A stretch of DNA of 64,000 bases from a virus: IMG/VR virus record IMGVR_UViG_3300014613_000001, positions 64,001 through 128,000 of that record; one strand, written 5' to 3'. Of this stretch, positions 21,997 to 42,658 are shown in pieces. The number at the start of each line of letters is the position of its first letter. Positions within the stretch are counted from its first letter, which is position 1. The translations under genes were made by a program, and so were the position numbers. A model generated the notes under the pieces. The model made no database searches. It had not been told where the DNA came from and was given only the letters and a program-made list of their open reading frames with translations.

Positions 21997-22023
21997 GTAC
22001 TGATACTGTCCCTTTCATGTTTG

Positions 22024-22056: not shown

Positions 22057-22151
22057 TTTCCTGTGTCGGCCTTTGCCCAGCTCCTCCAGGGTGATAGACT
22101 TGATGCAGAAACCCCCGATGCTTGTTCGTTCGGGGTCCAACGAGGAGTCAC

Positions 22152-23354: not shown

Positions 23355-23378
23355 GACGGGCAAGGATGAGGTATCGCC

Positions 23379-23712: not shown

Positions 23713-23718
23713 AAGAGG

Positions 23719-24603
23719 ATGACACGCCAAGGTGAAGAGCGTCTTTGGCAGCAACTTCAGGACGCCGAAGAGGAGAAGCCGATCGAGGAGGTCGAACCAC
23801 CGGCTGATCCGAAACCCGATAACGTCGAGAACGACAAGTCGGGAGATATGACGGTTTCGAATTTCTTGGCACACCACGATACCCATCCACTCGTGCTCGA
23901 CGCAGCTTGCCTGAAGGCGTTTCAGACGGACTGGTTGTGGTGGGAGCCTGAGATTATACACTCTGAGCTGCGGCGTGTGTTTGGGCAGTCAACGATCAGC
24001 ACCCTGAACTGGCAGCAGATCCAGGCGTGCAAGACCTGCCATGTTGTCCCGACCCCGTGGAAGGAGTGGGAGGTGTTCAACACTGTGATCATGGCGTTGA
24101 ACAACAACATCCCTGACTTTCACACCATGCAGAAGCCGAGCATCGCGCAGGTCATGGTGGGCCTGGATATCATGAGTCGGATCGACAGCCGACAGATGTT
24201 TTCGGAGGAAGTAGAGAAGTTCATTGCCGCCGTATTCTTGGAGGATGGCGTTTACTTCATGCCGCCTCCGGCAGATTTCGCGCAGGAGTGGGCGTCGAGG
24301 CCCGAGTACCGGTGCCGAAGGTGTGGACGCATTGATCGCGATGACATGAACGACATGTGCGATAGCTGCGGAGCGCCGGACAGTGAGTTGGAGCGGCAGT
24401 TGGCTTTCGACCCCGCCCCCGTCATGGCCAGGTACAATGAGTGTGTTCGTCTCGGAAACGATCGCGAGGACATGCTCGAGGAGACGATCATCGACGTTCA
24501 AACAGCGAAGCTCCTCCTCGCTCGAGAGTACATGCTGTTTCGGCGTCAGCAGTTGGAAGATCAGCTCAAGGTGGTGAACGATGCCAAGCCCATACGTGAT
24601 TGA
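23719..24603 (+). CDS. Hypothetical virion-region protein with C-terminal Zn finger
   Basis: Start at 23719 (AAGAGG SD) just after the array; CRRC...CDSC. Confidence 0.7.
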   Translation: MTRQGEERLWQQLQDAEEEKPIEEVEPPADPKPDNVENDKSGDMTVSNFLAHHDTHPLVLDAACLKAFQTDWLWWEPEIIHSELRRVFGQSTISTLNWQQIQACKTCHVVPTPWKEWEVFNTVIMALNNNIPDFHTMQKPSIAQVMVGLDIMSRIDSRQMFSEEVEKFIAAVFLEDGVYFMPPPADFAQEWASRPEYRCRRCGRIDRDDMNDMCDSCGAPDSELERQLAFDPAPVMARYNECVRLGNDREDMLEETIIDVQTAKLLLAREYMLFRRQQLEDQLKVVNDAKPIRD

Positions 24604-25489
24604 TCTGGCCTTCATCGACGCACAAGTTGACGAGATGGAGAAGATCGCCTTCCTCGGTAGCGCCTGGAAGGGTCTCCAGGCATCGAAACCTTTTGTGGGG
24701 CATCTTCTGGGAGCAGGTGCTGGAGCTGTAGCCGGTGGAGCAGCCGGAGCTGCGACAGCAGCTCCAGAGAATCGTGTTCGGCATGCTATCGGTGGTGCGG
24801 TGCTAGGTGGTATTGCTGGTCTGGTTCCAGGTCAGCTCGCTACGAAGGCTGGAAGGGCGGCTGTGGGGCGTCTTGGTCAACGTCAGCTCCACGGTCTGAC
24901 GGGCAAGCTGCCCGGGCACAGCTTCAAGAAGTCGCACGCGGTCGTAGGAGATGCTCGAACTGCTGCACTCGCCAAGATGAAATTCGACAACCCTGCTGTG
25001 CAAAGTGCCTCCGAGTTGAAAAAGGACATGTGGGGGCCCTTCAAGAATTTGCGCTCTAAGGCACAGTTTCGTGCACAGGAACATCAACGGTTTCTGGCAG
25101 CGAATGATCTGACGAACCTCCCCGGGTTGGTGAGGGGGTACGTGAAACCGGCTGCTGGTATTACACGTCGACAGATTCTGAAGTCCAATCTCCTGGCGCC
25201 TGGGATCGGTTTCGGCGTAGGTCTTCCGCTGGCCCTCACGGCTCCCTCCGCAGTGGAGTCTGTTCAGCAGCGGAGTATCAAGCCGCTGGCGCGCGGGGTG
25301 GTGGAGAACGCCAGCTTTGCGCTTGGCGGTGGCCTTCCGATTGGAGCCGCCATGGCTGCTGGGTATGGTGGATCTCGGCTCGCAGGGTTGATCGGTAAGG
25401 CTCCGCCAGTAACACAGCCAATCGCGCCCAACCGTACAACCAATCGTGCCCAACCGGCTATGCAGGGTCAAGTGATACCTGCGAGGTGA
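24581..25489 (+). CDS. DE(M)EKIA-leader, Gly-zipper membrane-like protein
   Basis: QVDEMEKIA followed by GAGAGAVAGGAAGAA, GGAVLGGIAG and further hydrophobic Gly-rich helices. Confidence 0.7.
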   Translation: MPSPYVIDLAFIDAQVDEMEKIAFLGSAWKGLQASKPFVGHLLGAGAGAVAGGAAGAATAAPENRVRHAIGGAVLGGIAGLVPGQLATKAGRAAVGRLGQRQLHGLTGKLPGHSFKKSHAVVGDARTAALAKMKFDNPAVQSASELKKDMWGPFKNLRSKAQFRAQEHQRFLAANDLTNLPGLVRGYVKPAAGITRRQILKSNLLAPGIGFGVGLPLALTAPSAVESVQQRSIKPLARGVVENASFALGGGLPIGAAMAAGYGGSRLAGLIGKAPPVTQPIAPNRTTNRAQPAMQGQVIPAR

Positions 25490-25493
25490 TCTG

Positions 25494-27359
25494 ATGTTTG
25501 GATATGGAGAACCGGTTGGTGCACAGCAGTCCCAGACCTCGGGCCGTATTCGGGGCTCGGGGAGGATCGAGGGGGTCAAGTACCCCTCGCCATTTTTTGA
25601 TCTGGCGCACACGTACCTGCCGAGCTCGGTCAAGCAGCTGTTTCAGTGGTGTCGGTATTTCTATCTGACAAACCCGCTGATCGCGACCGTCGTCAACAAA
25701 TTGGCCGAGTACCCGATCACCGATCTCGTGATCGACACTAATAATAAAGGGCTCAAGGACAAGTGGCAGGGGTTTTTTGATGACGACATCTTTTTGCAGC
25801 CGAGTCTGATCGACATCGGTCTGTTCTACACATGCTACGGGAACGCGTTGATATCCCTGAGCTTCCCGTTCGTCAAGTGGCTCAAGTGCGAGAAGTGCAA
25901 ACATGAGGTTCAGGCGAAGGAGGCGACGTACCAGTTTCGGGGGTGTAAGTTCCGCCTCACTTGCAAGAAGTGTGATCATCAAGGTGTAGCCGAGGTTCGT
26001 GATCAGTCGCTCTCCACAACATTCGGATCGCGTTTGATCCTCTGGAACCCAGAGGACATTGACATTCAGTACAACGATCTCACCGGAGAGACCGTGTACT
26101 ACTACACGCTCCCTGCGCATCTGAAGAGCGCCATTCGGGTCGGACGACGAGAAGTAGTCGACCGTTCTCCGCAGGTGTACATCGATGCGGTTCGTCTCAA
26201 TAAGTCGGTCGTCCTCGATGCTGACAACGTCTACCATCTCCGAAGGCCTTCGATCTTCACAGGTCGTTTGAACCGAGGATGGGGCACACCGCTTCTCATG
26301 CCGGTGCTGAAGGACACCTTCTATCTTCAGCTCATGAAGAAGGCGCAAGAGGCTGTGCTGCTCGAGCGCATGCTTCCTCTGAACGTCATATCCCCCGCCT
26401 CCGCAGCTCCAGGAGTGAATCCTTACGAGCTCACTAACCTGGATGATTGGCGAACTCACGTCATGGGGGAGATCATGAAGTGGCGGCGTGATCCTCTCTA
26501 CATCCCGGTCATGCCTCTGCCGCTCAATCACCAGGTCATCGGAGGGGATGGTCGAGCGTTGTTGCTCAACAACGAGATGCGTCAGATCTCGGATGTCATT
26601 GTGGCCGGGATCGGGTGCCCACCAGAGCTTGTCTACGGCGGGCTCTCTTGGTCGGGCTCCAACGTCAGTCTCCGGATCCTCGAGAACCAGTTTCTTAGGT
26701 ACCTGTCCGGCATGCTGCGCTTTATCAAGGTCTTCCTCATTCGACGAACCGCGGCGCACCTCGGTTGGCCGGCGGTGGATGCGCGGTTCAAGCCGTTCAA
26801 GATGGCTGACGATATCCAGCGCAAAGCGTTCATGCTGCAGGCCAATCAAGCGAAGTTGGTCAGCGACACGACTATGCGTGAAGAGATGGATCTCAGCCCG
26901 GATGGGGAAGATTCGCTCTTGAAGAGTGAGGTCAAGCGCCGTCTCGAGAGTATGGAAGAGCAGCAAATGGCCGAGGCCCAGATCGCCGGCAAAGCCAGTG
27001 TGCTCTCTGCGAAGTACGAGGCTCGTGCTCAGATGGCTCTGGCCGAAGAGCAGCAACAGATGAGTCAGGGAAGTTACGGTTCGGCTCAGGGCGAACCAGG
27101 CGCCGGCACAGCCGAGGCTCCGGTGTCTCCGGCACAGCCGGATGCAGCTCAGGGCGGATTCGCGCAGATGCTGCAGCGCCTACAACAGGTTTCTCCAGAC
27201 AGCCAGCAGGCGATCATCCAGCGCATCGCACAACAGAACCCACAGCTCGCCGAGACACTCTCCAAGCAGCTTCAGCCGGCCGCACCTTCCACAGACTCCT
27301 CTGCGGGTAAGCCCCTGCCAGAACAGCTTCCACCGCGGCGTGCAGCCAGCCCCGTGTGA
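25494..27359 (+). CDS. Portal protein (with Zn-finger insertion and Gln-rich tail)
   Basis: YLTNPLIATVVNKLAEYPITDL N-terminal portal-like motif, RGWGTP, IVAGIGCP.ELVYG and VDARFKPF.M.DD; size and context fit. Confidence 0.7.
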   Translation: MFGYGEPVGAQQSQTSGRIRGSGRIEGVKYPSPFFDLAHTYLPSSVKQLFQWCRYFYLTNPLIATVVNKLAEYPITDLVIDTNNKGLKDKWQGFFDDDIFLQPSLIDIGLFYTCYGNALISLSFPFVKWLKCEKCKHEVQAKEATYQFRGCKFRLTCKKCDHQGVAEVRDQSLSTTFGSRLILWNPEDIDIQYNDLTGETVYYYTLPAHLKSAIRVGRREVVDRSPQVYIDAVRLNKSVVLDADNVYHLRRPSIFTGRLNRGWGTPLLMPVLKDTFYLQLMKKAQEAVLLERMLPLNVISPASAAPGVNPYELTNLDDWRTHVMGEIMKWRRDPLYIPVMPLPLNHQVIGGDGRALLLNNEMRQISDVIVAGIGCPPELVYGGLSWSGSNVSLRILENQFLRYLSGMLRFIKVFLIRRTAAHLGWPAVDARFKPFKMADDIQRKAFMLQANQAKLVSDTTMREEMDLSPDGEDSLLKSEVKRRLESMEEQQMAEAQIAGKASVLSAKYEARAQMALAEEQQQMSQGSYGSAQGEPGAGTAEAPVSPAQPDAAQGGFAQMLQRLQQVSPDSQQAIIQRIAQQNPQLAETLSKQLQPAAPSTDSSAGKPLPEQLPPRRAASPV

Positions 27360-27368
27360 TAACCAGCT

Positions 27369-27408
27369 AAAAAGAAGGGGTGGGGAGGTCCGAAGACGTC
27401 CCCACCTC
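27369..27408 (-). terminator. Intrinsic terminator (minus strand)
   Basis: Stem GGGGTGGGGA (27377-86)/TCCCCACCTC (27399-408), then TTCTTTTT on the minus strand. Confidence 0.8.
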
Positions 27409-27424
27409 TGGCTGCACCGAGGAC

Positions 27425-27511
27425 TTAGTCCCGGTACAACCACTGTTCAGGCCGGCTCGTCAGCACCCTGAGAAAGGTAACGAGAAAAGCCAGCGCGAAC
27501 AGTGCCCACAC
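27425..27511 (-). CDS. 28-aa single-pass membrane micro-protein (not in ORF track)
   Basis: GTG start; MWALFALAFLVTFLRVLTSRPEQWLYRD*; coupled to the upstream acidic micro-ORF and followed by a terminator. Confidence 0.5.
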   Translation of the reverse strand: MWALFALAFLVTFLRVLTSRPEQWLYRD

Positions 27512-27513
27512 AG

Positions 27514-27636
27514 CTACTCGTCCTCGCCCGAGTAGCCCAGGGATTCATCCACGCTGTCTTCGAGATCCCCGCAGGGATCGTCGAAGACCTCCTCATCGTC
27601 GTCACCCCAGCGGGCGGCTCCTTTGTGCTCTTCCAT
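27514..27636 (-). CDS. 40-aa highly acidic micro-protein (not in ORF track)
   Basis: AGAGG SD; MEEHKGAARWGDDDEEVFDDPCGDLEDSVDESLGYSGEDE*. Confidence 0.55.
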   Translation of the reverse strand: MEEHKGAARWGDDDEEVFDDPCGDLEDSVDESLGYSGEDE

Positions 27637-27656
27637 TTTGACCTCTGATCTGGGCC

Positions 27657-27689
27657 GCTAGATAGGCCCGGTTCCATTGCTCTTATACC
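27657..27689. promoter_or_regulatory. Bipartite motif GCTAGAT-N18-CTTATACC, copy 2
   Basis: GCTAGAT 27657-27663 and CTTATACC 27682-27689, upstream of the RNAP gene (+) and the micro-ORFs (-). Confidence 0.7.
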
Positions 27690-27845
27690 TGTTGGCTTGT
27701 TCCATTTGCGTGGGGCTGGTAGAGTGAGATCAGGTTAGACAAGGAGCCGACATGGCCAGATTTGACCCCGAAGGCGGACGTAGCTCTGCCAATGACGGGG
27801 ACGAGGGCGCGAGGTCGGAGAGCCGGAAGCACATGGGGGCACGTC

Positions 27846-30800
27846 ATGTCACGGCTTGACCCGAAAGACAGCTTTGCGGCACTGAAGGAAGGGGTGAAGA
27901 CGTCGATCAGTAGCACCTTCCCACAGGTTGGCGAAAAGAACACTCTTGATCTCGAGGACATCGAGATCACCGATGACATAAACGAGGCTGACTACACCGG
28001 GCAGAAGGACGCCAAGATCAACGGGCGAACTTGGGGCGTTCCTGTACACGCCACGATGGTGCTCAAGGACAATAAGACCGGGAAGGTTCTTGATCGGAGG
28101 CGACAGAAGATCGCCACGCTCCCAAAGGTGACCAATCGTTACTCCTACGTCGTCCAAGGATCAGAGTATCAGATCGACGGACAGTGGCGCCTTCGTCCAG
28201 GTGTCTACACGAAGGTCAAAGAGAACGGGGAGCTTGACTCGTTCTTCAACATCAAAGGGCGCCCGCTTCACGTAGGATTTGATCCTAAAGAGCGGAAGTT
28301 CAACATTCAGCATGGGGGCGCGAAGCCCCCACTCTATCCCGTCATGAAAGCTCTTGGTATCAGTGACGATACGCTGGAGAAGAAGTGGGGGAAGGATATC
28401 CTGGCTGCGAACCGGACAGATGCTCGAGGTCGGCCGCTCAAGGTCGACAAGGTGGCCATCGACTTTGCTCGTCGCATTGACCCTCGTGCAGAGGTAGAGA
28501 CCTTTGAAGACGCCTCTAGGGTCATCCAGACCAACTTTGAGCAGTCGGAGCTCCACCCCGAATCGACAAAGCGCACACTTGGAAAAAAGATCGATCGCGT
28601 CACTCCCGAAGCAGTGCTTCTCTCGTCGGGAAGACTCCTGGGGGTGGCTCGAGGAACTGAGAAGCCTGATGTTCGGGATTCGCTGGTGTTCAAGGACTTC
28701 CACGGTGTGGAGGATTTCGTCGCGGAGAGGATCACTGGACACGCTCCGACGATCGCAAGGCGGGTTGGGAATAACCTGGATAAGACCGACAAGATCAAGG
28801 ACATCGTCGGGCCCGACATGTACGATCGTCCGATCAAAGAATTCTTTGGGAAGGTGTCCCTGGCCAGTACACCTCCTCAGACAAATCCACTTCGAATGAT
28901 CTCTGGTCAGATGAAGACCACCATTGCTGGCGAGGGTGGTGTATCTGATGCGAATCGGATCACTGATGACGCAAAGCTCGTTGACCCATCGCACTTCGGA
29001 GTCCTCGATCCTCTGCACACACCTGAGTCTGTGAGCACGGGCGTTACCCTCCAGCTCACGCTAGGAGCTCGAAAGAAGGGAACTCAGATCGTAGTACCCC
29101 TGTACGATGTCAAGTCTGGGAAGACGAAGTTGGTCGATACCGCAGAGGTTCACGACTCGATCGTCGCGCTCCCGGATGAGGTACAGAAAGTAGGGGGTGT
29201 GTACGTTCCGAAGAAGGGTAACCGGGTGTTGGCGAGCATCGCCGGAAACGACATGCGGCCCACGGCCATGAAAGATGTGAAGTACATCGTTCCCCACTCG
29301 AGTCAAATGTTCTCGCTGGCGACCAACATGGTGCCCTTCATCAACAGTGATTCTCCAAACCGCGCCACGATGGCTGGGCGCCATATGGAGCAGACGATAC
29401 CCGTCGTCGACGGCGAGGTCCCGCTTGTTCAGTCCACGATCGGGGGGAAATCGTTCGACGAAATTATCGGTCGTTTTGCTTCCAGCAACGCGCCGGTGGG
29501 CGGAAAGGTAACGAAGATCACTGAAGATGCCGTCATGATGAAGTCGGATGACGGCAAGTCACATAAAATCCCGATCTACAACCACTACCCGCTCAATGAC
29601 AAGAAGGGATTTATGCACAGCACACCGACGGTCCAGGTCGGTGAACAGATCAAGAAGGGTCAGCTGCTCGCAGATACGAACTTCACGAAAGGCGGAGTGT
29701 ACGCCCCCGGGAAAAATCTGACCGTGGCGTACATGCCGTGGAAGGGTCTGAACTTCGAAGACGGTGTTATCGTGAGCGAAGAGGCCGCGGCGAAGATGAC
29801 CTCGATGCACATGCACAAGAAGGGGCTCTCGACGCGGGATGCGACTCTTGATGGGAAGAAGAAGTACCAAGCCCACTACCCGAATCAGCTGACGAAGGAA
29901 CGGGCCGAGAAGCTCGACGATGATGGCATCGTCCGTATCGGGCAGAAGGTCAAGCCGGGGGATGTGCTGATCGCAGCTCTTGGCGAGCAGGTGCTGACGA
30001 CTGAGCAGCAGAAGATGCGGCTCCTCCATCGCAGTCTTGTACAACCGAAGAAGGACAAGGCTGTGACCTGGCAGGAGGACTTCGAGGGCGAGGTCGTGGG
30101 GGTGAACCGACGTGGGAAGCACGTCGATGTCCATGTAAAGACTATCGAGCCCATGGAGATCGGAGACAAGCTCGTAGGCCGCCACGGAAACAAGGCGATC
30201 GTCACTGGTATCCTCGCCAAGGGTGAGATGCCTCAGACTCAGGATGGCCGACCTGTCGAGATCCTCATGAATCCGATTGGTACTCCGGGCCGCATGAACG
30301 TCGGACAGGTACTCGAGACAGCGGCTGGGAAGCTGGCGGAACACCGGGGTTCTCCTTACAAGGTCGAGAACTTCTCCGAGGAGGACAACCTCGAATCCGT
30401 TCGTAGTCAGCTTGCGGCAGCTGGCCTCGACGATAAGGAGGATCTGATCGACCCCGGCACGGGGAAGAAGATCCCCGGGGTACAAGTCGGGAAACAGTAC
30501 ATCCTGAAGATGGAGCACCAGGTCGGGAAGAAAATGGCGTCTCGTGAGCGTGATGCTTATGACCAGAACATGGTCCCTCGAGGTGGTGGGAAGCACGGAG
30601 CCCAAGCTCTTGGTGGGCTCGGCGTGTACGCCATGCTGGCTCACGGCGCGCGTGAGAACCTGCGTGAGATGCAGGTGAGCAAGACCGACAAGGATCAGAC
30701 GGACGAGCTGTGGACTGCCATCCAGACCGGAGAGCTCCTCCCGCCACCGAAGACGACCTTCGCCTACAATAAATTCAACGGGTACCTCAATGGAATGGGG

Positions 30801-33800
30801 GTGAACGTACACAAGGACGGCAACAGTCTGAACCTGATGCCGATGACGGACGCCGACGTGCTCAAGCTCTCGAACGGGGAGTTGAAGGACGCTGGGCGTG
30901 CCCTGAAGGCCAAGACGCTGAAGCCGGAAAAGGGTGGTCTCTTCGACGAGAAGATCACAGGTGGGATGGACGGGAAGAAGTGGGGCCACATCAGGCTCGC
31001 TGTACCTGTTCCGAACCCACTGTTTGAAAAGGCCGTCATGAGTCTGACAGGCCTCCGAGGACCGCAGTTCAATCGCATCATCGACGGCGACGCTGGTGTC
31101 ACGGAAGATGGGAAGATTGTTGACGAGGTTGGCGTGAAGGGGGCGGTCTACGGTCCCCCGGCTGTTGGCCGTCTCCTTGATAAAGTTGATGTCACGGCAA
31201 GTCTTGCCGAGGAAGAGAGTCGTCTGCCCAAGCTGAAGGGCCAACTCTTGAACGAGTCGGCCAAGAAGGTCAAGTACCTTCGAGCGTTGAAGAAGCTGGA
31301 TATGACGCCGACCGCGGCGTACATGACGCAGAACGTCCCTGTGTTGCCGCCTTCGATGCGTCCGATCTCTGTGATGGAGGACGGAAGCCTTCAGACGGAC
31401 GACCTCAACGAGCTCTACAAGGGCCTAGCGATCGTGAACGCGAAGCAGAGAGAGTTTCCAGCCGGGACTCCTGAGTCGCTCAAGGCTCCTATCGCTGCGA
31501 GTGTGTACGATCATATGAAGGCGTTGACGGGTAATGGCGGGACGCTCAACGCGAAGCACCCTGGCCTTCTGGAGATAATTGCCGGGAAGAACGGGCCCAA
31601 GACGGGCTTCGTCCAGAAGACGTTGATCAAGCGAAAGCAGGATCTCTCGGCGCGCTCGACCATTGTTCCTGATCCGACTCTCGGGCTTGACGAGGCGGCC
31701 ATTCCGCGGAAGGCCGCAAAGGAGATCTACAAGCCATTCATCGTCAAGGAGCTTCGAGCTATGGCCGGTACCTCACCGAACGAAGCCCGGAGGATGATTG
31801 ACGAGGATGACCCTCTTGCTCGAAGAGCGCTCGAACGTGTGGTAGAGAAGCGTCCGATCATTTTGAAGAGGGATCCGGTTTTGCACCGATACGGCGTCCA
31901 GGCGTTTAAGCCCAAACTTGTGGACGGTAAGGCGATCAAAATTCACCCTCTGGTGTGCTCGGGCTACAACGCGGACTTCGATGGGGACACCATGAGCGCC
32001 TTCGTTCCGATCTCTGATAAAGCGGTCGCCGAGGCGCACAAGATGTTTCCGTCGAGCAACCTCTTCAGCCCCGCCACACACGGCGTCATGTACGCGCCAT
32101 CCCACGAGCAGCAGGTGGGGTTGTTCATGGCGACCCAGGTCGGGAAGAGTACGGGCAAGAAGTTCAAGGATCTGAAGGAGGCTGAGAAGGCGTTCAATGC
32201 TGATGAGGTCGGACTCACGGATGTGGTGAGTGTTGCCGGTGCGACGACGACGCTTGGGCGATCACGAATAGATGCCCAGTTACCGACGGAGATGAGAGGC
32301 GGCAAGATCCTGACGGATCTGCAGTACAACCTTACGAAGAAAGAGCAGGGGCAGCTATTCAACGAGATGGCGCGTGGCAATCCTAAGAAGTACCCAGATC
32401 GTGTCAATAAGCTCAAGGATATCGGGAATGACACCGCCTCTACCCAGGGGTTCAGTCTGGGGCTCGAGGACTTCAAAGTTCATAAGGAGATTCGTGATCC
32501 TATCCTTCTACATGCGGCCGCTAGATCAGCGAAGCTGGACTCGAACAAGCCTGCCGATGTCTCGAGAATAGTGGATATCTACGCTGACGCTATGGAGAAG
32601 ATCGAGACCGGTGTCATGGCCAAAGCGAAGCGCGGCACGTCTCAGCTTGACCGTCTTCAGAACGCAGCGGGTATCAAGGGCGGGGGTTATCGCCAGCTCA
32701 CTGCGGCCCCTGTGCTCTTTGTAGATGGAAAGGGAGACGTTGTCCCGAATCCCGTGACTCGCTCCTATGCTGAGGGGCTGTCCACAACGGCTTATTGGAG
32801 TGCAACGAGCGGCGGTCGTAAGGGCATCGTTCAGAAGGTGCAAAGCGTCTCGGAGCCAGGCTATCTCACCAAGATGATGACGAATTCTGTCATCGATCAG
32901 CTCGTCGACAAAGATGACTGCGGGACTGATCGCGGTATATCATTGTCCGTCGACGAGCCAGACGTGGTCGGTCGATATACAACAGCGGGGCTCAACCTCG
33001 GACGGGGAAAGGTGATCCCCGCGGGGACGATGCTCACACCCGACGTCCTGACAAAGATCAGGAACAGTAAGGCTTCAGCGAAGGTGGTCGTGCGCTCTCC
33101 GATGAGATGCACCCATACTCATGGCGTGTGCCAAAAGTGCATGGGGCTAAACGAAGACGGCCAGCTGAACGACTTTGGCACGAATGTCGGGGTTGCAGCT
33201 GCACAGGCTCTCGGGGAACGAGGCACACAATTAGCAATGAAGGCATTTCATTCTGGGGGTGTTTACGAGGGAAAGGGGACGAAGTCCTTGACCGGGGAGG
33301 GTCTTGATCAGGCGACGAGCATTCTGTACTTGAGACAGAAGGTGAAGGGGTCCGCGGTGCTCGCGGACATCGGGGGTAAGATTCGCAGGATCAAGAAGGA
33401 TCCTGCTGGCGGTGCTCGAGTAATGATCGGAGAGAACGAGGTCTATGTTCCCTCCGATCGGAAGATGCTCAAGAATATCCGTGTGGGCGAGACTGTGAAG
33501 CGCGGAGATCAGCTGACGTCCGGACCTGTGAACCCACACGAGCTTCTACCACTAACGAACGTGAACAAGGTGCAGGGACATCTAGCAGGGGAACTGCACA
33601 GCATCTACGGTAGTCAGGGTATCCGGCGTCGTAACTCTGAGGTGCTGGTACGCGCGATCTCAAGTGTGACGAAGGTGGAAGACTCCGGTGGCCACCCAGA
33701 TCTGCTTCGGGGGGATTTTGCCAACACGGCGATGATCCAGGACTGGAATAAGAAGCACAAGGACGCGGCTCCGGTTCGTCATGTGCCGGTCCTTCGGGGT

Positions 33801-33992
33801 GTCAAACAGGTGCCACTCGATGTTCAAGAGGATTGGATGGCGCGGCTGAATCACCAGAACCTGAAGTCCACGGTGATCGAAGCGGCACAGCAGGGGTGGT
33901 CCTCTGATCTTCATGGTACAAACCCCGTACCCTCGCTTGTGTATGGTGTAGAATTCGGGAAGGGCACGAAGGAAAAGCCCTGGAGGTACTGA
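27846..33992 (+). CDS. rpoBC: Single-chain beta-beta' fusion DNA-dependent RNA polymerase (probable virion RNAP)
   Basis: Beta motifs TPES, GDKLVGRHGNK and ILKMEH...ASR, then in the same frame beta' motifs KPEKGGLF, WGHIRL, RDPVLHR, catalytic YNADFDGD (about 31965-31988), SGGRKG..K and DCGT...RSP..C......CQKC. ORF track starts at 27762; likely ATG at 27846. Confidence 0.95.
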   Translation: MSRLDPKDSFAALKEGVKTSISSTFPQVGEKNTLDLEDIEITDDINEADYTGQKDAKINGRTWGVPVHATMVLKDNKTGKVLDRRRQKIATLPKVTNRYSYVVQGSEYQIDGQWRLRPGVYTKVKENGELDSFFNIKGRPLHVGFDPKERKFNIQHGGAKPPLYPVMKALGISDDTLEKKWGKDILAANRTDARGRPLKVDKVAIDFARRIDPRAEVETFEDASRVIQTNFEQSELHPESTKRTLGKKIDRVTPEAVLLSSGRLLGVARGTEKPDVRDSLVFKDFHGVEDFVAERITGHAPTIARRVGNNLDKTDKIKDIVGPDMYDRPIKEFFGKVSLASTPPQTNPLRMISGQMKTTIAGEGGVSDANRITDDAKLVDPSHFGVLDPLHTPESVSTGVTLQLTLGARKKGTQIVVPLYDVKSGKTKLVDTAEVHDSIVALPDEVQKVGGVYVPKKGNRVLASIAGNDMRPTAMKDVKYIVPHSSQMFSLATNMVPFINSDSPNRATMAGRHMEQTIPVVDGEVPLVQSTIGGKSFDEIIGRFASSNAPVGGKVTKITEDAVMMKSDDGKSHKIPIYNHYPLNDKKGFMHSTPTVQVGEQIKKGQLLADTNFTKGGVYAPGKNLTVAYMPWKGLNFEDGVIVSEEAAAKMTSMHMHKKGLSTRDATLDGKKKYQAHYPNQLTKERAEKLDDDGIVRIGQKVKPGDVLIAALGEQVLTTEQQKMRLLHRSLVQPKKDKAVTWQEDFEGEVVGVNRRGKHVDVHVKTIEPMEIGDKLVGRHGNKAIVTGILAKGEMPQTQDGRPVEILMNPIGTPGRMNVGQVLETAAGKLAEHRGSPYKVENFSEEDNLESVRSQLAAAGLDDKEDLIDPGTGKKIPGVQVGKQYILKMEHQVGKKMASRERDAYDQNMVPRGGGKHGAQALGGLGVYAMLAHGARENLREMQVSKTDKDQTDELWTAIQTGELLPPPKTTFAYNKFNGYLNGMGVNVHKDGNSLNLMPMTDADVLKLSNGELKDAGRALKAKTLKPEKGGLFDEKITGGMDGKKWGHIRLAVPVPNPLFEKAVMSLTGLRGPQFNRIIDGDAGVTEDGKIVDEVGVKGAVYGPPAVGRLLDKVDVTASLAEEESRLPKLKGQLLNESAKKVKYLRALKKLDMTPTAAYMTQNVPVLPPSMRPISVMEDGSLQTDDLNELYKGLAIVNAKQREFPAGTPESLKAPIAASVYDHMKALTGNGGTLNAKHPGLLEIIAGKNGPKTGFVQKTLIKRKQDLSARSTIVPDPTLGLDEAAIPRKAAKEIYKPFIVKELRAMAGTSPNEARRMIDEDDPLARRALERVVEKRPIILKRDPVLHRYGVQAFKPKLVDGKAIKIHPLVCSGYNADFDGDTMSAFVPISDKAVAEAHKMFPSSNLFSPATHGVMYAPSHEQQVGLFMATQVGKSTGKKFKDLKEAEKAFNADEVGLTDVVSVAGATTTLGRSRIDAQLPTEMRGGKILTDLQYNLTKKEQGQLFNEMARGNPKKYPDRVNKLKDIGNDTASTQGFSLGLEDFKVHKEIRDPILLHAAARSAKLDSNKPADVSRIVDIYADAMEKIETGVMAKAKRGTSQLDRLQNAAGIKGGGYRQLTAAPVLFVDGKGDVVPNPVTRSYAEGLSTTAYWSATSGGRKGIVQKVQSVSEPGYLTKMMTNSVIDQLVDKDDCGTDRGISLSVDEPDVVGRYTTAGLNLGRGKVIPAGTMLTPDVLTKIRNSKASAKVVVRSPMRCTHTHGVCQKCMGLNEDGQLNDFGTNVGVAAAQALGERGTQLAMKAFHSGGVYEGKGTKSLTGEGLDQATSILYLRQKVKGSAVLADIGGKIRRIKKDPAGGARVMIGENEVYVPSDRKMLKNIRVGETVKRGDQLTSGPVNPHELLPLTNVNKVQGHLAGELHSIYGSQGIRRRNSEVLVRAISSVTKVEDSGGHPDLLRGDFANTAMIQDWNKKHKDAAPVRHVPVLRGVKQVPLDVQEDWMARLNHQNLKSTVIEAAQQGWSSDLHGTNPVPSLVYGVEFGKGTKEKPWRY

Positions 33993-33993
33993 G

Positions 33994-34359
33994 ATGATCG
34001 ACTCGATCAACACGGTTCGCTACGACGCATTCTTTGATGAACTCGGGCAGATCGAGAAGAGAGCAATGTTGACCAGGGTCGCGGCTCTCAGTCCGGGCTT
34101 TGTTTCGCAAGTCGTTCGTGGCGGGAGGCAAATCCTCACCAAGCCCGGAAACGCGGTCAAGGCCGTCCGTACTGCCTACGGTCGTGGATCACGAGTTGCC
34201 GCACAAGCTGGAGGTGGTCGACTCTCACAGCTTGGCGGTGGTCTGGAGCGCGTGTGGAAAACCCCACAGGGCAAGGCAGCGGTGGTCGGCGCTGGCGCTC
34301 TTGCGGGTGGAGCCGGGCTGGTCGGTACCGGGGCTGTATTGGGCCGAGCTACCGCATAG
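33994..34359 (+). CDS. FDEL..IEKRA-leader small Gly-rich membrane-like protein
   Basis: DAFFDELGQIEKRA leader; C-terminal AAVVGAGALAGGAGLVGTGAVLG. Confidence 0.7.
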   Translation: MIDSINTVRYDAFFDELGQIEKRAMLTRVAALSPGFVSQVVRGGRQILTKPGNAVKAVRTAYGRGSRVAAQAGGGRLSQLGGGLERVWKTPQGKAAVVGAGALAGGAGLVGTGAVLGRATA

Positions 34360-34365
34360 AGGAAC

Positions 34366-35517
34366 ATGCCGGGAGCACACTCCAATTCCCAGGTCCAACG
34401 TGGGGTCAACGCCGTTCTCATCGAGACGGGGCAGATCATCAACGTGGATATTGATCACTGGACGGTGGATGTTCGCACGAAGCACACCTACAGGTTGCTG
34501 CTCGATCTCCAAGTAGGGGCTTCGTACCTGCACTTCCACTCTGGAGAAGGCATCTTCGTCATGCCAGAGGTGGGGGCGCTCGTGAAGGTCTGCATGCCGA
34601 GTGACGATACGCCCTTCGTTCTCTGCTTCGTCACGGCCTTCGAACGTGCTGCTGCCGCTGGTGCTCCAACGCAGGCAGGCGATGTGCCCGACGAGGAGGG
34701 TGGAGAAGAAAACGAGGTCACCTTCCGAGCTGGCCGCCCCAGGATACAGCAGGGCGACATCATGCTTCGCACCCGGGATGGCAACCAGCTATGGCTCCGA
34801 CGAGGTGGAGTTGTCGAGATCGGCGCGGGGCCCATGGCGAAGAGGGTGTACATCCCGATCACAAATATGCTTCGCGACGTCTTTGAGAACTACGAAGCTC
34901 TCTCCACTGCCGGCGAGATGCGATGGACGACGACGCGCTCTGATAGTGATCCGTCTGGAGAGGCGCAAGCGATCTTTACACTTGCGGCTCGTGATCATGC
35001 CCAGGACGAGAACACGACCGTCCTTGTGTCGGCCGGTCATGTGGATGATACGACTCGTCTTCGGTGTGTCGTTGCCCCAGACGCCATTGACTCGAGAACT
35101 GGTGAGGTCACGGGCAGCGCCGTGTATGAGTTCACTGTCAACGACGACGGTGATGTCGAGGTCACTGTGGCCGGGGACGTCACTGTCGAGGTCGAGGGCG
35201 CGGTCGACGTGACTGTGAGTGGGGATGGGCAGCTCACGTTCGGCAACCTGACAGAGACGGTCAACGGGGACCTGACCCATCGAGTGAGCGGTGGCCACAG
35301 TTTGACCGCCAACAGCAGTCGGGAAAGATTGAGCGGGACGAAGATCATTGATGCCCCCATGACCCAGATCGGTGGGAGCAAGCCGGTTATGCTGATGACA
35401 GGAGCAATGAGCGCGTTTCTTTACCATACGCACACTGTCGTCGGGGGCGTAACCAGCACTCCACTTCCTGCGGTCTCCCCGGATGACGTCGCAGCTACAA
35501 AATTGAGGAGTGGGTGA
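34366..35517 (+). CDS. Baseplate central spike/puncturing protein (gp5/gpV/VgrG-like)
   Basis: N-terminal OB-fold-like 'MPEVGALV' segment, beta-helix repeats (VTVAGDVTVEVEG...) and C-terminal HTH (HxH) metal-binding tip. Confidence 0.8.
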   Translation: MPGAHSNSQVQRGVNAVLIETGQIINVDIDHWTVDVRTKHTYRLLLDLQVGASYLHFHSGEGIFVMPEVGALVKVCMPSDDTPFVLCFVTAFERAAAAGAPTQAGDVPDEEGGEENEVTFRAGRPRIQQGDIMLRTRDGNQLWLRRGGVVEIGAGPMAKRVYIPITNMLRDVFENYEALSTAGEMRWTTTRSDSDPSGEAQAIFTLAARDHAQDENTTVLVSAGHVDDTTRLRCVVAPDAIDSRTGEVTGSAVYEFTVNDDGDVEVTVAGDVTVEVEGAVDVTVSGDGQLTFGNLTETVNGDLTHRVSGGHSLTANSSRERLSGTKIIDAPMTQIGGSKPVMLMTGAMSAFLYHTHTVVGGVTSTPLPAVSPDDVAATKLRSG

Positions 35518-35807
35518 TGGCGCTCAATGAAGCGGTTCTGGCTAACCTGATCGCTGACATCTATCATCTAGAGATGGTGGCTGCCTTCCCTACGGTGGTC
35601 AAAGGTGTTGAGGTCATCGAGGTCCCGCGAGAAGATGGGACGATGAGCTACGATGTGACACTGGTTCGAGGCCCGAATGAGCCAGACGAAGCGAGTATCC
35701 GCCCGATGGCCAATGCTATCGCACAAGCAGTGATTCGGCACATCAAGGCCCATGCAGAGGTGAATGACACTGATGCCGGCGCCGGAGGTAGTTGGAGGAT
35801 TTTATGA
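35514..35807 (+). CDS. Small baseplate-associated protein
   Basis: 97 aa, translationally coupled to the spike gene. Confidence 0.55.
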   Translation: MMALNEAVLANLIADIYHLEMVAAFPTVVKGVEVIEVPREDGTMSYDVTLVRGPNEPDEASIRPMANAIAQAVIRHIKAHAEVNDTDAGAGGSWRIL

Positions 35808-37819
35808 CTGCACTTTACCTGGATACAACGCCGCCGCCGGTTGACATGCCGAAGGTGGCCGCGGAAGCTCGACTCTCCGACTCTGCGGACTCGTGGCCCC
35901 GAGAGGTGCACAAGGAACTCTTGAGAGAGTGTCCGTACCTCGGAGCCTACGACGTGTCCCCACAGCTGACGAAGGTGGACGCAGAGCAGGGGTATGGTCT
36001 GGGTTTCGTCCGTGTGAGCAGTAAGTCGGCGACCATGCCGCTCGGACCCGGGTCCGATGCGGTGATGAAGTCGCAAGGTGTTCGCGCGATCCGAGTTCCC
36101 GTCATCATCAAGAACAAGAAACTCCAACCGATGGACGTGTTCTTGGGGGACAAGGGTATCTACCCGATGTCGGATGTCCGAGTCCGTGCGGCGCTCTTTC
36201 GTCCCCAGGTTTTTGACTCCGTGAAGAGCGGGCCTGGGGATACGTCGATATACGATCAGCTCTACCCGCCGTCGAGTCGGCAATCCGGAGGTGGTGGCGG
36301 GCAGGTCAGTTCTGTTTCGCAGACAAAGCTCGGATCAACGAAGCCGACTTTCCTGTTGGAGGCCATCTCCTCAACCATCACCGCGGACGACGTGGCGCGG
36401 ATCAAGCTGGCGATGTCAGAAGATCCGCAGCTCGTGCGCGCGTTGGTGCATAACGACTCGACGCGCCCTTTCATTGAGACCATCGTATCGTTGACACCGG
36501 TGACGACACAGGACGTCACCAAAGTCGCTTCGATGATCGCGCGTCCTACTATCTTCCAGGTGGAGAGGCTCAACGATTCTTACCTGCTGAAGACAGCTGA
36601 CGACACGGCATTTGATCCGCAGGTCACCGAGGTCGATCGGAACACGGCGGTGGAGATCGCTGGAAAAGATCTGGTCGAGCAAGCGGACAACTTCGGCGCC
36701 GGTACGGTCACCATGAACCCCGTCGTTCACGATGACAGCATCGAGGATGAAGAAATCGGCCCGATCACGTCCTTTGGCGAGTATCGAGTCAAGACGCCTG
36801 ACGGTCAGGAATATCTGGGCTGGGTCTTCCCTACCGTCCTCGACTTTGACGGCACATCGCTTCCGTTCATGCTCTTCACGAACGGGGCCGTGTCCGCCAT
36901 TCAGGAATCCATCGTCGGGAGCTTCGTCGGGAAAGGGGTCAACATCATCCGAGGGAAGCCGGAAGGCTATGGCTTCTTCTACCGGGTCACGACAAGTGGT
37001 GGGGTCATCGCTTTCCAGCCGCTCGAGATCGCCAGTAGTTTCTCAGACGAGTCCGGTTCCGGGTTCCTCGGTGAGACGATGATGGCCGAGCCCGTGAAGA
37101 TCGTGTTCAGTGCGGAAGTTCATGCCCCTGTTCATTTGGAAGGCACCACCTATGTTCTTCCATCGGATGTACGATGGGCACCTCTCGGGAAGAAGATGAC
37201 GACGAAGCTGATCAGGGATGCCACGGAGTTCATCAAGACCGCCATGGTGCGGGCCTCGATGAACATGGTCCGTGTCATCTCTGACGGGCACACCTGGTCT
37301 TTCAATGGCCCGCCGCTCGAGAAGGTAGCGTATCGGTGGCGCGAGGGTCTCGGCGGCGCTGACGCAGCTTTCATGGCCAGTGCGCTCGGGATGTCCAATG
37401 AGCTCGCCCTGAAGACGCTCATCAAGTCAGCTCGTGAGCGCGATGCCGTGTTCGTCCCGAACTGCCGAGCCATTGGTTCGCCAGGTGTAAAGCTGGCTGC
37501 GGCTCGTCAGAGGGCCAAGAGTTTGTGGGACGCCGTGCCCCGTCGCCGATCTCTGTTGAAGGAGGCGGCAGCGCTGGATGACGTGACGACCATCGACAAG
37601 ATTCTCAGCCTCGGTTTTATCAGCCCCGAGAATGCGCAGATCTTCGTGAGTTGGCTTCCGGACCTCGAGGAGGCACTCCAGAAGCTGGCTTCATTGCTGC
37701 TCGCCGCCCGTCTTGGGCAAGAGGATATCCCCGAACAAGCCTCCAAGAGTGCGATGCTTCAGCTCGAAGAGGTGATCATGGGCTTGAAGAAGCTCATGTT
37801 CCGGAAGGACGGAAAATGA
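35804..37819 (+). CDS. Large virion/head protein with multiple K-x-A motifs
   Basis: KVAA, KVAS, KTAD, KTAM and KEAAA motifs; GGAGG SD; ATGA overlaps with neighbours. Confidence 0.6.
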   Translation: MTALYLDTTPPPVDMPKVAAEARLSDSADSWPREVHKELLRECPYLGAYDVSPQLTKVDAEQGYGLGFVRVSSKSATMPLGPGSDAVMKSQGVRAIRVPVIIKNKKLQPMDVFLGDKGIYPMSDVRVRAALFRPQVFDSVKSGPGDTSIYDQLYPPSSRQSGGGGGQVSSVSQTKLGSTKPTFLLEAISSTITADDVARIKLAMSEDPQLVRALVHNDSTRPFIETIVSLTPVTTQDVTKVASMIARPTIFQVERLNDSYLLKTADDTAFDPQVTEVDRNTAVEIAGKDLVEQADNFGAGTVTMNPVVHDDSIEDEEIGPITSFGEYRVKTPDGQEYLGWVFPTVLDFDGTSLPFMLFTNGAVSAIQESIVGSFVGKGVNIIRGKPEGYGFFYRVTTSGGVIAFQPLEIASSFSDESGSGFLGETMMAEPVKIVFSAEVHAPVHLEGTTYVLPSDVRWAPLGKKMTTKLIRDATEFIKTAMVRASMNMVRVISDGHTWSFNGPPLEKVAYRWREGLGGADAAFMASALGMSNELALKTLIKSARERDAVFVPNCRAIGSPGVKLAAARQRAKSLWDAVPRRRSLLKEAAALDDVTTIDKILSLGFISPENAQIFVSWLPDLEEALQKLASLLLAARLGQEDIPEQASKSAMLQLEEVIMGLKKLMFRKDGK

Positions 37820-38007
37820 TCCAAACATTCACGAGAGAGGAATATCTGTACGCACTGGAGAAGACGGCCAAGGGATCTGTGCGAGACGTTGGTAGGGTTC
37901 AGAAGTTTCTGAAGAGCATCGTTGGAACGCGTCCGTCCCAGGCCAACCCACTCAGCCCCGGAAGGGGTCTCATGGGCTTCGTGGGCCGCCGGGCAAAGAC
38001 AATGTGA
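37816..38007 (+). CDS. 63-aa basic protein with LEKTA leader
   Basis: MIQTFTREEYLYALEKTAKG...; ATGA overlap. Confidence 0.55.
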   Translation: MIQTFTREEYLYALEKTAKGSVRDVGRVQKFLKSIVGTRPSQANPLSPGRGLMGFVGRRAKTM

Positions 38008-38015
38008 AGTGAGGT

Positions 38016-38882
38016 ATGGTTCGACATCCAGCAACCTATTGGGCGAAATTCTATCTGTCCCGCCGCACGCACAGCTATGAGCAGATAGAGGGTCTGCTCA
38101 CGTGCTATAACCTCCCTGGGTTTTCTGTAGACGATCTGCAAGAGCTCGATGCCTCCATGCAATACCCTCGGGTGTTTCGCCCACAGTTGAGAAATGATCG
38201 TACGAGTCAGCGGTTCATCCGCCAGGAGCAGATCTTCGAAGCGTGGCATCCGTGTGCGGACATGAAGGCCGCGATAGCGATCCTCGATGATCACACACTT
38301 CGTCAGCACATAGAGACATTGATCCTGTCACCCGTGCGTCCTGAGCAAGCAGTGAGGAAGTTGGCAGAGAGGCTCAAGGTCAATCTCACCGTGCGATCCT
38401 ACGAGTTCTTTCGCCATTACTTCTGGAACCCCCGGCTCCTGACCTCGACTGAGTGGGGGAGATTTATCCGCGAGCGCGAGAGCACGAACCAGGAGTGGCT
38501 CCAGCTCGCGAACAGCACGGACGGACCCGAGGGTGTGAAGCTCCTTCTGTGGAAGACCGGGCTGGGTGGCATATCGAAGATTGATTCGAATCAAGGGTTC
38601 GCCCGGGCGAAGGCCGTAGCTTTCCTCATGCTCGAGCAGCTCTACATGGATGCGCCATCCCCAGCTCACTCAAAGATGTTCCTGAGCTACCTTCAAGCTG
38701 CGAAGATGGCGCAGGAGGGAGAGGACGAGAGCGCAAACGCTGTTCAGGATATCGTGCAGGCGTTCAAGTCGTTCAAGCTGCGAACACAGATCGTGAAGAC
38801 CAAGACTGTGAAGCAGCTCACCGAGGGAAACTTTTCACCTCCGGAGATCGTGAACGACGACGATGAAGGGATGGTGTACTGA
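38016..38882 (+). CDS. Hypothetical protein
   Basis: 288-aa ORF with GAGG SD. Confidence 0.7.
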   Translation: MVRHPATYWAKFYLSRRTHSYEQIEGLLTCYNLPGFSVDDLQELDASMQYPRVFRPQLRNDRTSQRFIRQEQIFEAWHPCADMKAAIAILDDHTLRQHIETLILSPVRPEQAVRKLAERLKVNLTVRSYEFFRHYFWNPRLLTSTEWGRFIRERESTNQEWLQLANSTDGPEGVKLLLWKTGLGGISKIDSNQGFARAKAVAFLMLEQLYMDAPSPAHSKMFLSYLQAAKMAQEGEDESANAVQDIVQAFKSFKLRTQIVKTKTVKQLTEGNFSPPEIVNDDDEGMVY

Positions 38883-39530: not shown

Positions 39531-39570
39531 GGAAAAAGCCAGGATAGGATTCCCGAACGGGGTCCTGGCT
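39531..39570 (-). terminator. Intrinsic terminator (minus strand)
   Basis: AGCCAGG (39537-43)/CCTGGCT (39564-70), followed by TTTTCC on the minus strand. Confidence 0.65.
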
Positions 39571-40798: not shown

Positions 40799-42658
40799 AT
40801 GTCTTTCGACAGTCTATCGTCCCCCGCCTCGAGCAGTTCTTTCTACGCCGGGATTGATGCCTACCTTGATTCTCTCCAGGCGCTCGAGGGTGGAGAGGAT
40901 CGTGTCTTCGAAGATGAGATCGACGCCCTCCTATGGGAGGCTGACCAGGCAGCTCGAAGGGAAGAGGAGGAGATCGAGGAGGTGCTCTTCGGTATAGAGG
41001 AGAGCGCTGCGTCATTGGAGAACGTGGTGAGCCCGTCGGAGTTCACTCAGTTCGCGATCAAGTTACCTGTTGAGGGGGATTATCTTCCGTTCTCTTTCGA
41101 TGGCCGTCGTTATCTGAAAGAGCCATACGATACGGCCGCGCGCCGTACGCTGCTCAAATGTTCGAGACAGACCGAAAAGTCGACCATGCTAGGTAACAAG
41201 AGCCTGGCCTACTGTGGGATCAACGTCGCTTTCAAGGTGCTCTATGTCAGCGCCACGGCGACACAGGCCCAGGTTTTCTCGGTGGATCGGCTCAAGGACC
41301 CCATTGAGACCTCTCCAGAGTTGAGCTTCCTCGTCGATTCCGGGCTCAGTCAGAACGTACTGTTCAAACAGTTCCGAAACCGATCACAGATCAGGATCAG
41401 GTACGCTTTCCTTCACGCTGACAGGACACGAGGCATTCCTGCGGATCTGATTCTAATAGATGAGATTCAAGATATAATCTTTTCTAACGTTCCGATCATC
41501 GAGCAGTGCGCCAGCCACTCTCCGTGGAAGCTCTACTGTTACAGCGGCACACCGAAGAGTCTGGACAACACCATCGAGGTTTATTGGTCGGAGCACTCGA
41601 CACAGAACGAGTGGGCTGTGCCGTGCGACCGTCACTCTCCCTACTTCTGGAATATCCTCGGTCGCCAGAACATCGGAAAGAAGGGGCCCATCTGCTCGAA
41701 GTGTGGTGCCCCGATCAACCCGGCACATCCGGACGCTCAATGGGTGAGTTTCCAGCCGATCACCAAGGACAACCATGAGCGCGTCACGTTCGAGGGATAC
41801 CGGATCAATCAGTTGATGGTGCCCTGGATCATCAACGATCAAGAGGCGTGGCACGACAGTATTCTCTTCCCGCTCGAGAACTATGGGTCAGCTCAGTTCA
41901 ATAATGAAGTCCTCGGTCTTTCCTTCGATAGCGGGCAGCGCCCCCTCACCCAGAGGATGGTCGCCGTGTGCTGTCAGGGGGACATACACTTCAACGATAT
42001 AGAAAAGAACGTGCTGAGGTGCCACCAACATGGTGGCGTCGCGGTTGGGATCGATTGGGGAAGCGGCGAGAGGGAATCTTACACAGTCCTCTCGCTCGGC
42101 GGATACATGGGCGGTGAGTTCCAGATTTTCTTCTGTCATCGGTTTGTCGCTGAGGATCTCAACGTCCAGCTTCAGATGCTGAAGATCGCCAAGCTCCTGA
42201 CCGATATCAACTTCACGATCTGCGGGACGGACTATGGTGGCGGGTTTGATCGCAACGATTGGTTGATCCGAAACTTCGGTCCTCGAAAGATCGTTCGCTA
42301 CCAGTACGCCTCCAACCCGAAGAAGAAAGTGAAGTGGGAACCGGAGCTTGGCCGCTTCATCCTGCACCGTACCGAGATCATGAGTGACATCTTCAACGCC
42401 ATTCGTCGAAGGAAGATCTGGTTCCCGCAGTTCGAAGAGTTCAGAGTGCTTCACGGTGCCGACATGCTGAACATCTTCAGCGAGTACAACATGAAGACGC
42501 ACATGACGCAGTATCAGGTGTCGCCCGGTAAGTCCGACGATACCTTCCACTCCGTCCTGTATTGTGTCCTGGCCTCCATGTTCTTCAAGCCGCGTCCTGA
42601 TCTGATCATTCCAACGAAGCCTGGTCATGTGGACTTCACCCCTGATCTTACAGCATGA
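40799..42658 (+). CDS. terL: Terminase large subunit
   Basis: KCSRQTEKST Walker A-like, LILIDEIQD Walker B, SGTP, RuvC-like GIDWG and C-terminal DDTFH. Confidence 0.85.
   Translation: MSFDSLSSPASSSSFYAGIDAYLDSLQALEGGEDRVFEDEIDALLWEADQAARREEEEIEEVLFGIEESAASLENVVSPSEFTQFAIKLPVEGDYLPFSFDGRRYLKEPYDTAARRTLLKCSRQTEKSTMLGNKSLAYCGINVAFKVLYVSATATQAQVFSVDRLKDPIETSPELSFLVDSGLSQNVLFKQFRNRSQIRIRYAFLHADRTRGIPADLILIDEIQDIIFSNVPIIEQCASHSPWKLYCYSGTPKSLDNTIEVYWSEHSTQNEWAVPCDRHSPYFWNILGRQNIGKKGPICSKCGAPINPAHPDAQWVSFQPITKDNHERVTFEGYRINQLMVPWIINDQEAWHDSILFPLENYGSAQFNNEVLGLSFDSGQRPLTQRMVAVCCQGDIHFNDIEKNVLRCHQHGGVAVGIDWGSGERESYTVLSLGGYMGGEFQIFFCHRFVAEDLNVQLQMLKIAKLLTDINFTICGTDYGGGFDRNDWLIRNFGPRKIVRYQYASNPKKKVKWEPELGRFILHRTEIMSDIFNAIRRRKIWFPQFEEFRVLHGADMLNIFSEYNMKTHMTQYQVSPGKSDDTFHSVLYCVLASMFFKPRPDLIIPTKPGHVDFTPDLTA

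Follow-up and report, generated by a model that had tools for sequence, protein, structure and literature searches.

Introduction

RNA polymerases (RNAPs) of the cellular type consist of several subunits, for which an alpha dimer serves as the assembly scaffold. In the natural rpoBC fusions of Helicobacter and Wolbachia, as in an engineered Escherichia coli beta::beta' tether, beta runs on from its C-terminus into the N-terminus of beta'; these are full-size cellular subunits that carry the Zn ribbon and still assemble with alpha2 and omega. Here, we describe a beta-beta' RNAP encoded as one chain by an uncultured phage, on a stretch of 64,000 nucleotides (hereafter the window) that spans bases 64001-128000 of the IMG/VR genome IMGVR_UViG_3300014613_000001 (G000 denotes whole-genome coordinates). 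In contrast to the cellular fusions and the tether, both of its halves are trimmed and no alpha or omega is detected in the phage. Among viral enzymes, the phiKZ and AR9 RNAPs are also phage-encoded kin of beta and beta', lack alpha and omega, and include one virion-packaged set (PMC7598289, PMC7824862), but each consists of 4-5 polypeptides, there are two paralogous sets and no sigma factor, and their divergence is far greater (PHROG matches only 1e-27 or weaker), whereas the phage studied here has one set, in one chain, and a sigma factor. The virion RNAP of crAss-like phages is likewise a single phage polypeptide holding both barrels, yet it is too divergent for the COG and Pfam models of beta and beta' (PMC7481178), by which the present RNAP is well detected. 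A first reading of the window made from its letters (the sequence-only reading) had set the enzyme apart from both the split phiKZ-type and the diverged crAss-type RNAPs, and this distinction holds: one chain and one set in the first case, detectability by Pfam in the second. The mReC phages (Weinheimer and Aylward 2020, PMC7481178) are uncultured tailed phages too, with a compact, bacterial-like beta (~890-1000 amino acids) and beta' (~1000 amino acids) flanked by particle genes; however, rows for metagenomic phages in the table of that paper give separate beta and beta' open reading frames (ORFs), and the terms "fused" and "fusion" are applied there to crAssphage alone, never to mReC. These phages have a gp23-type capsid (PF07068) and a PF03237 terminase, whereas this genome has no PF07068 match and a PF05876/phrog_675 terminase; given also the fusion in one ORF, mReC membership was rejected. 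Salmonella phage Arash (Gp206 plus Gp216, with the sigma Gp10) and the Vibrio phages D69, D148, and D181, on the other hand, belong to the same lineage at ~31-32% identity, sharing the beta/beta' junction, a portal gene just upstream, a homologous terminase, and a homologous sigma located after the gene of a large virion protein. In these cultured relatives beta' is cut again near residues 1460-1510 into a second gene of ~600 residues, separated by intervening genes (4.7 kb in Arash), whereas the chain studied here, like that of most relatives, is uninterrupted; the available part of the Arash report annotates the pieces as beta and beta', without comment on a fusion (PMC10585845). The literature searched yielded no paper describing a fused phage beta-beta' form, absence being no proof.

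Results

The phage genome (177,773 bp, 57% G+C) is complete, with a 124-bp terminal repeat and a CheckV completeness of 100%; the stretch is present in groundwater metagenomes. The RNAP frame is listed as 27762..33992 from a TTG start, while the ATG at 27846 gives 2,048 residues (228 kDa) beginning MSRLDPKDSF. Since this N-terminus fits the family consensus MARLxPxEGF, in which M1 is invariant, 27846 is likely the start codon. Both halves of a bacterial-type enzyme are recognized in the same chain: Pfam places Rpb2_3 and Rpb2_6 at residues 344-906 and Rpb1_1, Rpb1_2, and Rpb1_5 at residues 1160-1941 (E-values 1e-62 and 1e-28), BLASTP against Salmonella RpoB and RpoC pairs residues 8-989 with beta 33-1338 and residues 1009-2024 with beta' 34-1346, and solved bacterial beta' chains match residues ~1100-2035, with E-values down to 1e-106. 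Judged by this homology, the ORF encodes a bacterial-type two-barrel RNAP with beta and beta' as one polypeptide. For finer mapping we aligned 21 family members with Salmonella RpoB and RpoC; residue numbers are given as in E. coli, which is legitimate because the Salmonella proteins equal the E. coli lengths (1,342 and 1,407 amino acids). The sequence-only reading had proposed a beta-beta' chain of ~2050 residues with its junction near 30790-30850, retaining the catalytic NADFDGD and the second beta' Zn site and having lost the N-terminal zinc-binding domain of beta'. The single ORF, Pfam, and BLASTP bear out the first point, the junction falls at residues ~985-1000 (window ~30798-30845), the motif and the Zn site are both invariant in the alignment, and the four cysteines of the first site (C70, C72, C85, and C88) are gapped in 21/21 family members. 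Besides E. coli residues ~67-99, which form this ribbon, the beta' module lacks residues 127-151, and the whole fused RNAP contains five cysteines only (further trimming is given in table 1).

The junction reads ...NGMGVNV-HKDGNS-LNLMPMT...: the end of beta (...YLNGMGVNV) aligns to E. coli ...IRSLGINIELEDE, the start of beta', SLNLMPMTDADVLKLSNGELK, has its own aligned bacterial counterpart, and between the two lies the turn HKDGN alone, that is, no linker. The last beta strand and the first beta' strand are therefore adjacent in the alignment with the bacterial subunits, joined by the tight conserved turn KDGN. An AlphaFold model of residues 900-1470, built from a 17-sequence alignment (mean predicted local distance difference test score, pLDDT, 68.6), renders the junction as a pair of strands with a turn between them, after which come the clamp and its coiled-coil; pLDDT mostly exceeds 85 for residues ~1000-1230 and lower (67-86) over the junction hairpin, and the best fold matches of the model are bacterial beta' chains. 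The catalytic centre is also retained. Residues E813, D814, K1065, K1073, H1237, and K1242 of beta correspond to E638, D639, K775, K783, H891, and K896, trigger-loop M932 and H936 correspond to M1798 and H1802, and the mapped beta/beta' catalytic, trigger-loop, and second-Zn-site residues are conserved in 20-21 of the 21 sequences. As part of the explanation weighed in the Discussion, the fused RNAP is predicted to be catalytically competent. At the rifampicin pocket, H526 is replaced by G (19/21), S531 by T (21/21), and D516 by P in this phage, substitutions from which we would expect the fused RNAP to be, probably, insensitive to rifampicin. A separate peculiarity is found in the universally conserved beta motif GGQRFGEME, which reads GAQALGGLG here (residues 918-927, window 30597-30626), a change conserved in the family.

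Could the fusion be an artefact, two separate genes having been joined by misassembly or a frameshift? The genome is a metagenome assembly, and the sequence-only reading had itself raised an assembly error; we found no support for one. The frame is open throughout, the junction contains residues that are invariant across the 21 relatives, and the same fused layout recurs in more than 120 protein clusters (~2,040-2,080 amino acids, 44-73% identity), the largest of their contigs reaching 197 kb. At least 525 related contigs were confirmed by a profile scan of IMG/VR, and among the best 80 of these, whose gene order was also compared, most match continuously over residues 1-2048. Hundreds of independent contigs thus show one layout, and the cultured relatives agree: in Arash (gp206, 1,525 amino acids, plus gp216, 606 amino acids) and Vibrio D69 the fusion has this junction as well, and a cut occurs only farther along, in beta'. 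Zero differences over 27600-34100 were seen in two Logan assemblies of groundwater runs, but these may be the source samples and so give weak independent support. The fusion is genuine; an assembly artefact, whose probability is next to nil, is excluded for practical purposes. No family-level protein ending at the beta/beta' boundary was found among the shorter relatives, some of which are cut at residue ~1090 or ~1460. Pieces of ~740-816 amino acids covering residues ~635-1520 (P0124, P0127, P0131, and P0139) cross the junction, which indicates that the enzyme has been re-split in some phages at noncanonical places. Inteins and homing endonucleases typically invade conserved genes; many relatives (among P0003-P0046, and others) carry such domains (PF14528, PF14890, PF05204, and PF03161), which lengthen the protein to 2,250-3,370 amino acids; the copy in the window has none of these. 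Overall, the single-chain bacterial-type RNAP is real and conserved, and its gene belongs to the core of a large phage lineage.

Which other subunits does the genome supply? No alpha, omega, or sigma gene lies within the window, as the sequence-only reading had stated, and what that reading said of the sequence thus proved correct throughout. Its implied sigma-less minimal enzyme, as we understood it, is not supported: the complete genome encodes one sigma70-family factor, 251 amino acids long (G000 38657-39412, plus strand), 25 kb upstream of the window. With Pfam Sigma70_r3 this gene scores above the cut-off, and phrog_351 ("RNA polymerase sigma factor") is matched too, whereas the models for sigma region 2 (PF04542) and region 4 (PF04545) miss it. 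A profile of its 12-sequence family retrieves SigA, RpoS, and SigB chains from the PDB over regions 2-4 (E ~1e-14), and structures of sigma-S, SigA, and SigB align with its model (pLDDT 80) over ~245 columns. Identity to Arash gp10 is 31%; no other sigma-like gene was detected in the genome, and a single-copy homologue occurs in 12 of the 13 large genomes carrying the fused RNAP. In bacteria, the flap-tip helix docks sigma region 4 and the clamp coiled-coil docks sigma region 2; both elements are kept in the fused chain (table 1). We regard it as quite probable, on these sequence grounds, that the phage sigma partners the fused RNAP, and because the genome encodes this factor, the two probably form a two-protein holoenzyme. 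Just upstream of the sigma gene stands a gene for a 1,111-residue protein (G000 35322-38657; L005:5322-8657) that combines a P-loop kinase (AAA_18) with a GNAT acetyltransferase, bears a KLDG motif reminiscent of ligases and capping enzymes, and resembles injected "polyvalent" phage proteins; in Arash, a 1,165-residue virion protein occupies the same position before sigma.

Phage sigma factors that redirect host RNAP are common (T4 gp55, SPO1 gp28). It is thus conceivable that the fused RNAP works without sigma, like the phiKZ and AR9 enzymes, while the phage sigma reprograms the host polymerase instead; the missing beta' Zn ribbon and the known phage multisubunit RNAPs without sigma (PMC7824862) speak for such an arrangement. 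Yet the sigma is a single-copy core gene in 12 of the 13 fused-RNAP genomes, the RNAP keeps both main sigma docking elements, and both proteins are detected in Arash virions (PMC10585845), so that we consider a sigma-free enzyme distinctly improbable. With regard to the remaining partners, the sequence-only reading had left a second RNAP or a sigma-like factor to be sought in the rest of the genome, and only the latter was found: the complete genome holds one Rpb2_6 locus and one Rpb1_2 locus, and no second RNAP was detected. The PF00940 search for a T7-type RNAP was empty, as was its control, which makes it uninformative. For omega, the complete genome gave no PF01192 match, and an alpha-like PF01000 match (12.5 bits, G000 60189-60470), inside an 801-residue ORF without a Pfam family, was taken as due to chance. 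With no alpha or omega detected in the phage, independence of the fused RNAP from both is plausible and, in our judgement, somewhat more likely than not.

The RNAP gene lies within a cluster of particle genes. The order 410aa-321aa-portal-RNAP-383aa-675aa-288aa-TerL (TerL, large terminase subunit; the other labels give protein lengths in amino acids, aa), with every gene on the same strand, recurs in almost all 80 loci, and the location between portal and baseplate spike claimed from the letters alone corresponds to a portal homologue upstream and a weakly matching baseplate-hub-like gene downstream. In the virion preparation of Arash, a distant cultured relative, both RNAP pieces and the sigma rank with the most abundant proteins: mass spectrometry credits Gp206 with the most spectra of all (3,516), Gp216 with 1,210, and the sigma Gp10 with 467, at 100% coverage (PMC10585845). 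Conserved synteny and the proteomics of this relative together make packaging of the fused RNAP in the virion the option we favor. A near-identical leader, (S)F(S)DEL(Q/V)KIA or (D/N)E(M/I)EK(I/L)A, starts six small head-region proteins (the SFSDELxKIA family; window 24581, 47953, 56703, 57963, and 58253, and G000 62251), and may be a capsid-targeting or protease-processing signal; the sigma shows a loose likeness only to this family (LDFLQDEKDRIEKEA). Between the portal stop and a short acidic minus-strand ORF, a G+C-rich hairpin, GGGGTGGGGA...TCCCCACC (window 27370-27430), probably acts as a terminator in both directions.

Two kinds of element follow one another ahead of the RNAP gene. The rare motif GCTAGAT-N18-CTTATACC stands before this gene, before the terminase gene (copy at 40744-40776), and before the 22122 gene block; with up to one mismatch per half allowed, 37 relatives lack it in front of their RNAP gene, where only its 3' half, (c)TTATAnC, recurs. 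The succession of (c)TTATAnC and TTGnnn-N16-18-TAnnnT is found in 44 of 73 related loci, at -38 to -130 from the RNAP start codon, against 2.1% of 1,600 random 130-nt windows from the same loci, an enrichment to be taken as a rough guide, since the loci are related and the regions intergenic. The -10-like hexamer varies by subclade (TAGAGT, TAAGGT, TACGCT, and TATCAT), and the -35 sequence of several relatives is the TTGAC usual in bacteria; within window 20001-40000, no enrichment of sigma70-consensus promoters was seen. This geometry fits initiation by a sigma70-family factor, be it of the phage or of the host. The two-part region as a whole (27681-27725; loci L009-L088) is a candidate tandem promoter pair. 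The short upstream ORF repeats the N-terminus of the RNAP family in its first eight residues, MARFDPEG, ends 14 nt inside the RNAP ORF, and lies 55 nt from the TTGTTC element, a spacing that in relatives commonly separates promoter and start; its appearance is that of a short duplication of the RNAP gene's 5' end, and it may serve translational coupling.

These upstream elements bear on a further alternative, in which the polymerase is not a virion protein: host RNAP would transcribe the gene early from the sigma70-like element, the phage enzyme would then take over middle and late genes in a T7-like strategy, and its place among particle genes would be a historical accident. The promoter-like pattern preceding the gene in 44/73 relatives (2% in control windows) is the main support for this, and the TTGAC sequences are compatible with it, as is the Arash virion list, which counts 116 proteins, ribonucleotide reductases and metabolic enzymes included, and so appears contaminated (PMC10585845). 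Conversely, the gene is locked between portal and hub/terminase in 80 loci and shares its motif with the terminase gene, the RNAP has the top spectral counts in Arash virions, with sigma present too (PMC10585845), the subclade-specific -10-like hexamer is no less compatible with a coevolving phage sigma than with a host one, and the 20001-40000 region shows no enrichment for sigma70-consensus promoters. We therefore judge a nonvirion polymerase unlikely.

Table 1. Features of the fused RNAP locus, in window coordinates
Feature	Coordinates	Strand	Remarks
Portal gene, 621 aa	25494..27359	+	tblastn against Arash gp204 portal, 31.6% identity, E 1e-76; syntenic in 65/80 loci
GCTAGAT-N18-CTTATACC motif	27657..27689	+	Upstream of RNAP gene; one of 5 genome copies
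Promoter-like element, sigma70 geometry, TTGTTC-N17-TAGAGT	27697..27725	+	Directly after CTTATACC element
35-codon upstream ORF, strong AAGGAG ribosome-binding site	27752..27859	+	Begins MARFDPEGG...; overlaps RNAP ATG out of frame
Fused beta-beta' RNAP ORF (P0001)	27846..33992	+	Uninterrupted, 2,048 aa
Beta module, aa 1-~993	27846..30824	+	RpoB alignment; lacks E. coli first ~40 aa, SI1, SI2, and 1122-1180 insert
Flap-tip helix equivalent, aa 719-729, TEQQKMRLLHR	30000..30032	+	From alignment; H728 and S730 invariant
Beta active-site motif GDKLVGRHGNK, aa 773-783	30162..30194	+	K775, K783 = E. coli K1065, K1073
Beta/beta' junction, aa 985-1000, GVNVHKDGNSLNLMPM	30798..30845	+	Modelled beta-hairpin; G992, N993 invariant
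Beta' module, aa ~994-2048	30825..33992	+	Begins near E. coli residue 17; no SI3; C-terminal tail shortened
Site of deleted beta' Zn ribbon, between aa 1043/1044	30972..30977	+	E. coli ~67-99 absent
Clamp coiled-coil, aa 1184-1232	31395..31541	+	8 aa shorter than E. coli; high-confidence in model
Catalytic NADFDGD, aa 1375-1381	31968..31988	+	Double-psi barrel of beta'; invariant in 21/21
Second Zn site, C1692, C1755, C1762, C1765	32919..33140	+	= C814, C888, C895, C898; all invariant
383-aa gene, weak baseplate-hub/tail-lysozyme match	34366..35517	+	phrog_430, E 8.8e-6; syntenic in 72/80
Large terminase subunit	40799..42658	+	phrog_675 3e-49, PF05876; homologous to Arash gp1

Discussion

In this study, we examined a phage RNAP in which beta and beta' form one chain. 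The explanation that best accommodates the findings is a holoenzyme with the phage sigma, free of alpha and omega and delivered by the virion, to which as a whole we assign a probability of about 0.6. The architecture, the conserved motifs, the fusion across the clade, the co-occurrence of sigma, and the synteny are shown by the sequences; partnership with sigma, packaging, and independence from alpha and omega are inferred from them, each being held somewhat more likely than not. Under this explanation, the joining of beta and beta' would spare the halves the need to find each other, in a chain that has lost its lineage-specific inserts together with the beta' Zn ribbon. Together with the 251-residue phage sigma, it would form a holoenzyme that initiates at phage -35/-10 promoters and works without alpha or omega; made late, along with the portal, hub, and terminase genes, the enzyme would be packaged in the capsid and delivered with the DNA, rendering phage transcription independent of the host polymerase and, probably, insensitive to rifampicin. 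The more demanding version, a self-sufficient, virion-delivered enzyme of just two polypeptides, RNAP and sigma, with no alpha, omega, or Zn ribbon and with its own -35/-10-type promoters, is put forward tentatively.

Several observations weigh against this explanation. The W433/W434 pair of region 2.3, conserved in E. coli sigma70, is absent from the phage sigma, which could equally redirect host RNAP. Pfam searches could miss a very divergent alpha- or omega-like partner, and use of host alpha is possible. The RNAP has no obvious N-terminal capsid-targeting leader, its N-terminus being homologous to that of beta. Host RNAP could recognize the conserved sigma70-geometry element, in keeping with early, nonvirion expression. 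Finally, the metabolic enzymes in the Arash preparation make carry-over of abundant intracellular proteins possible (PMC10585845).

The fused RNAP is clearly interesting for studies of transcription, both structural and mechanistic. A trimmed single chain with bacterial-level similarity and an apparent dependence on sigma would offer a compact system in which to study how the enzyme assembles, how sigma docks when the Zn ribbon is missing, and how promoters are recognized, and might find use as an orthogonal transcription tool. As a core gene, it marks a barely studied lineage of at least several hundred phages with genomes of ~165-200 kb, distributed over groundwater, sediments, and marine habitats and with isolates on Salmonella and Vibrio. 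This lineage combines an own multisubunit-type RNAP, as in phiKZ, with an own sigma, as in T4-like jumbo phages, features previously seen separately. If the two-polypeptide holoenzyme proves true, no smaller sigma-dependent transcription machine of bacterial type would be known, and a very large lineage of uncultured phages would have it as its core transcription system.

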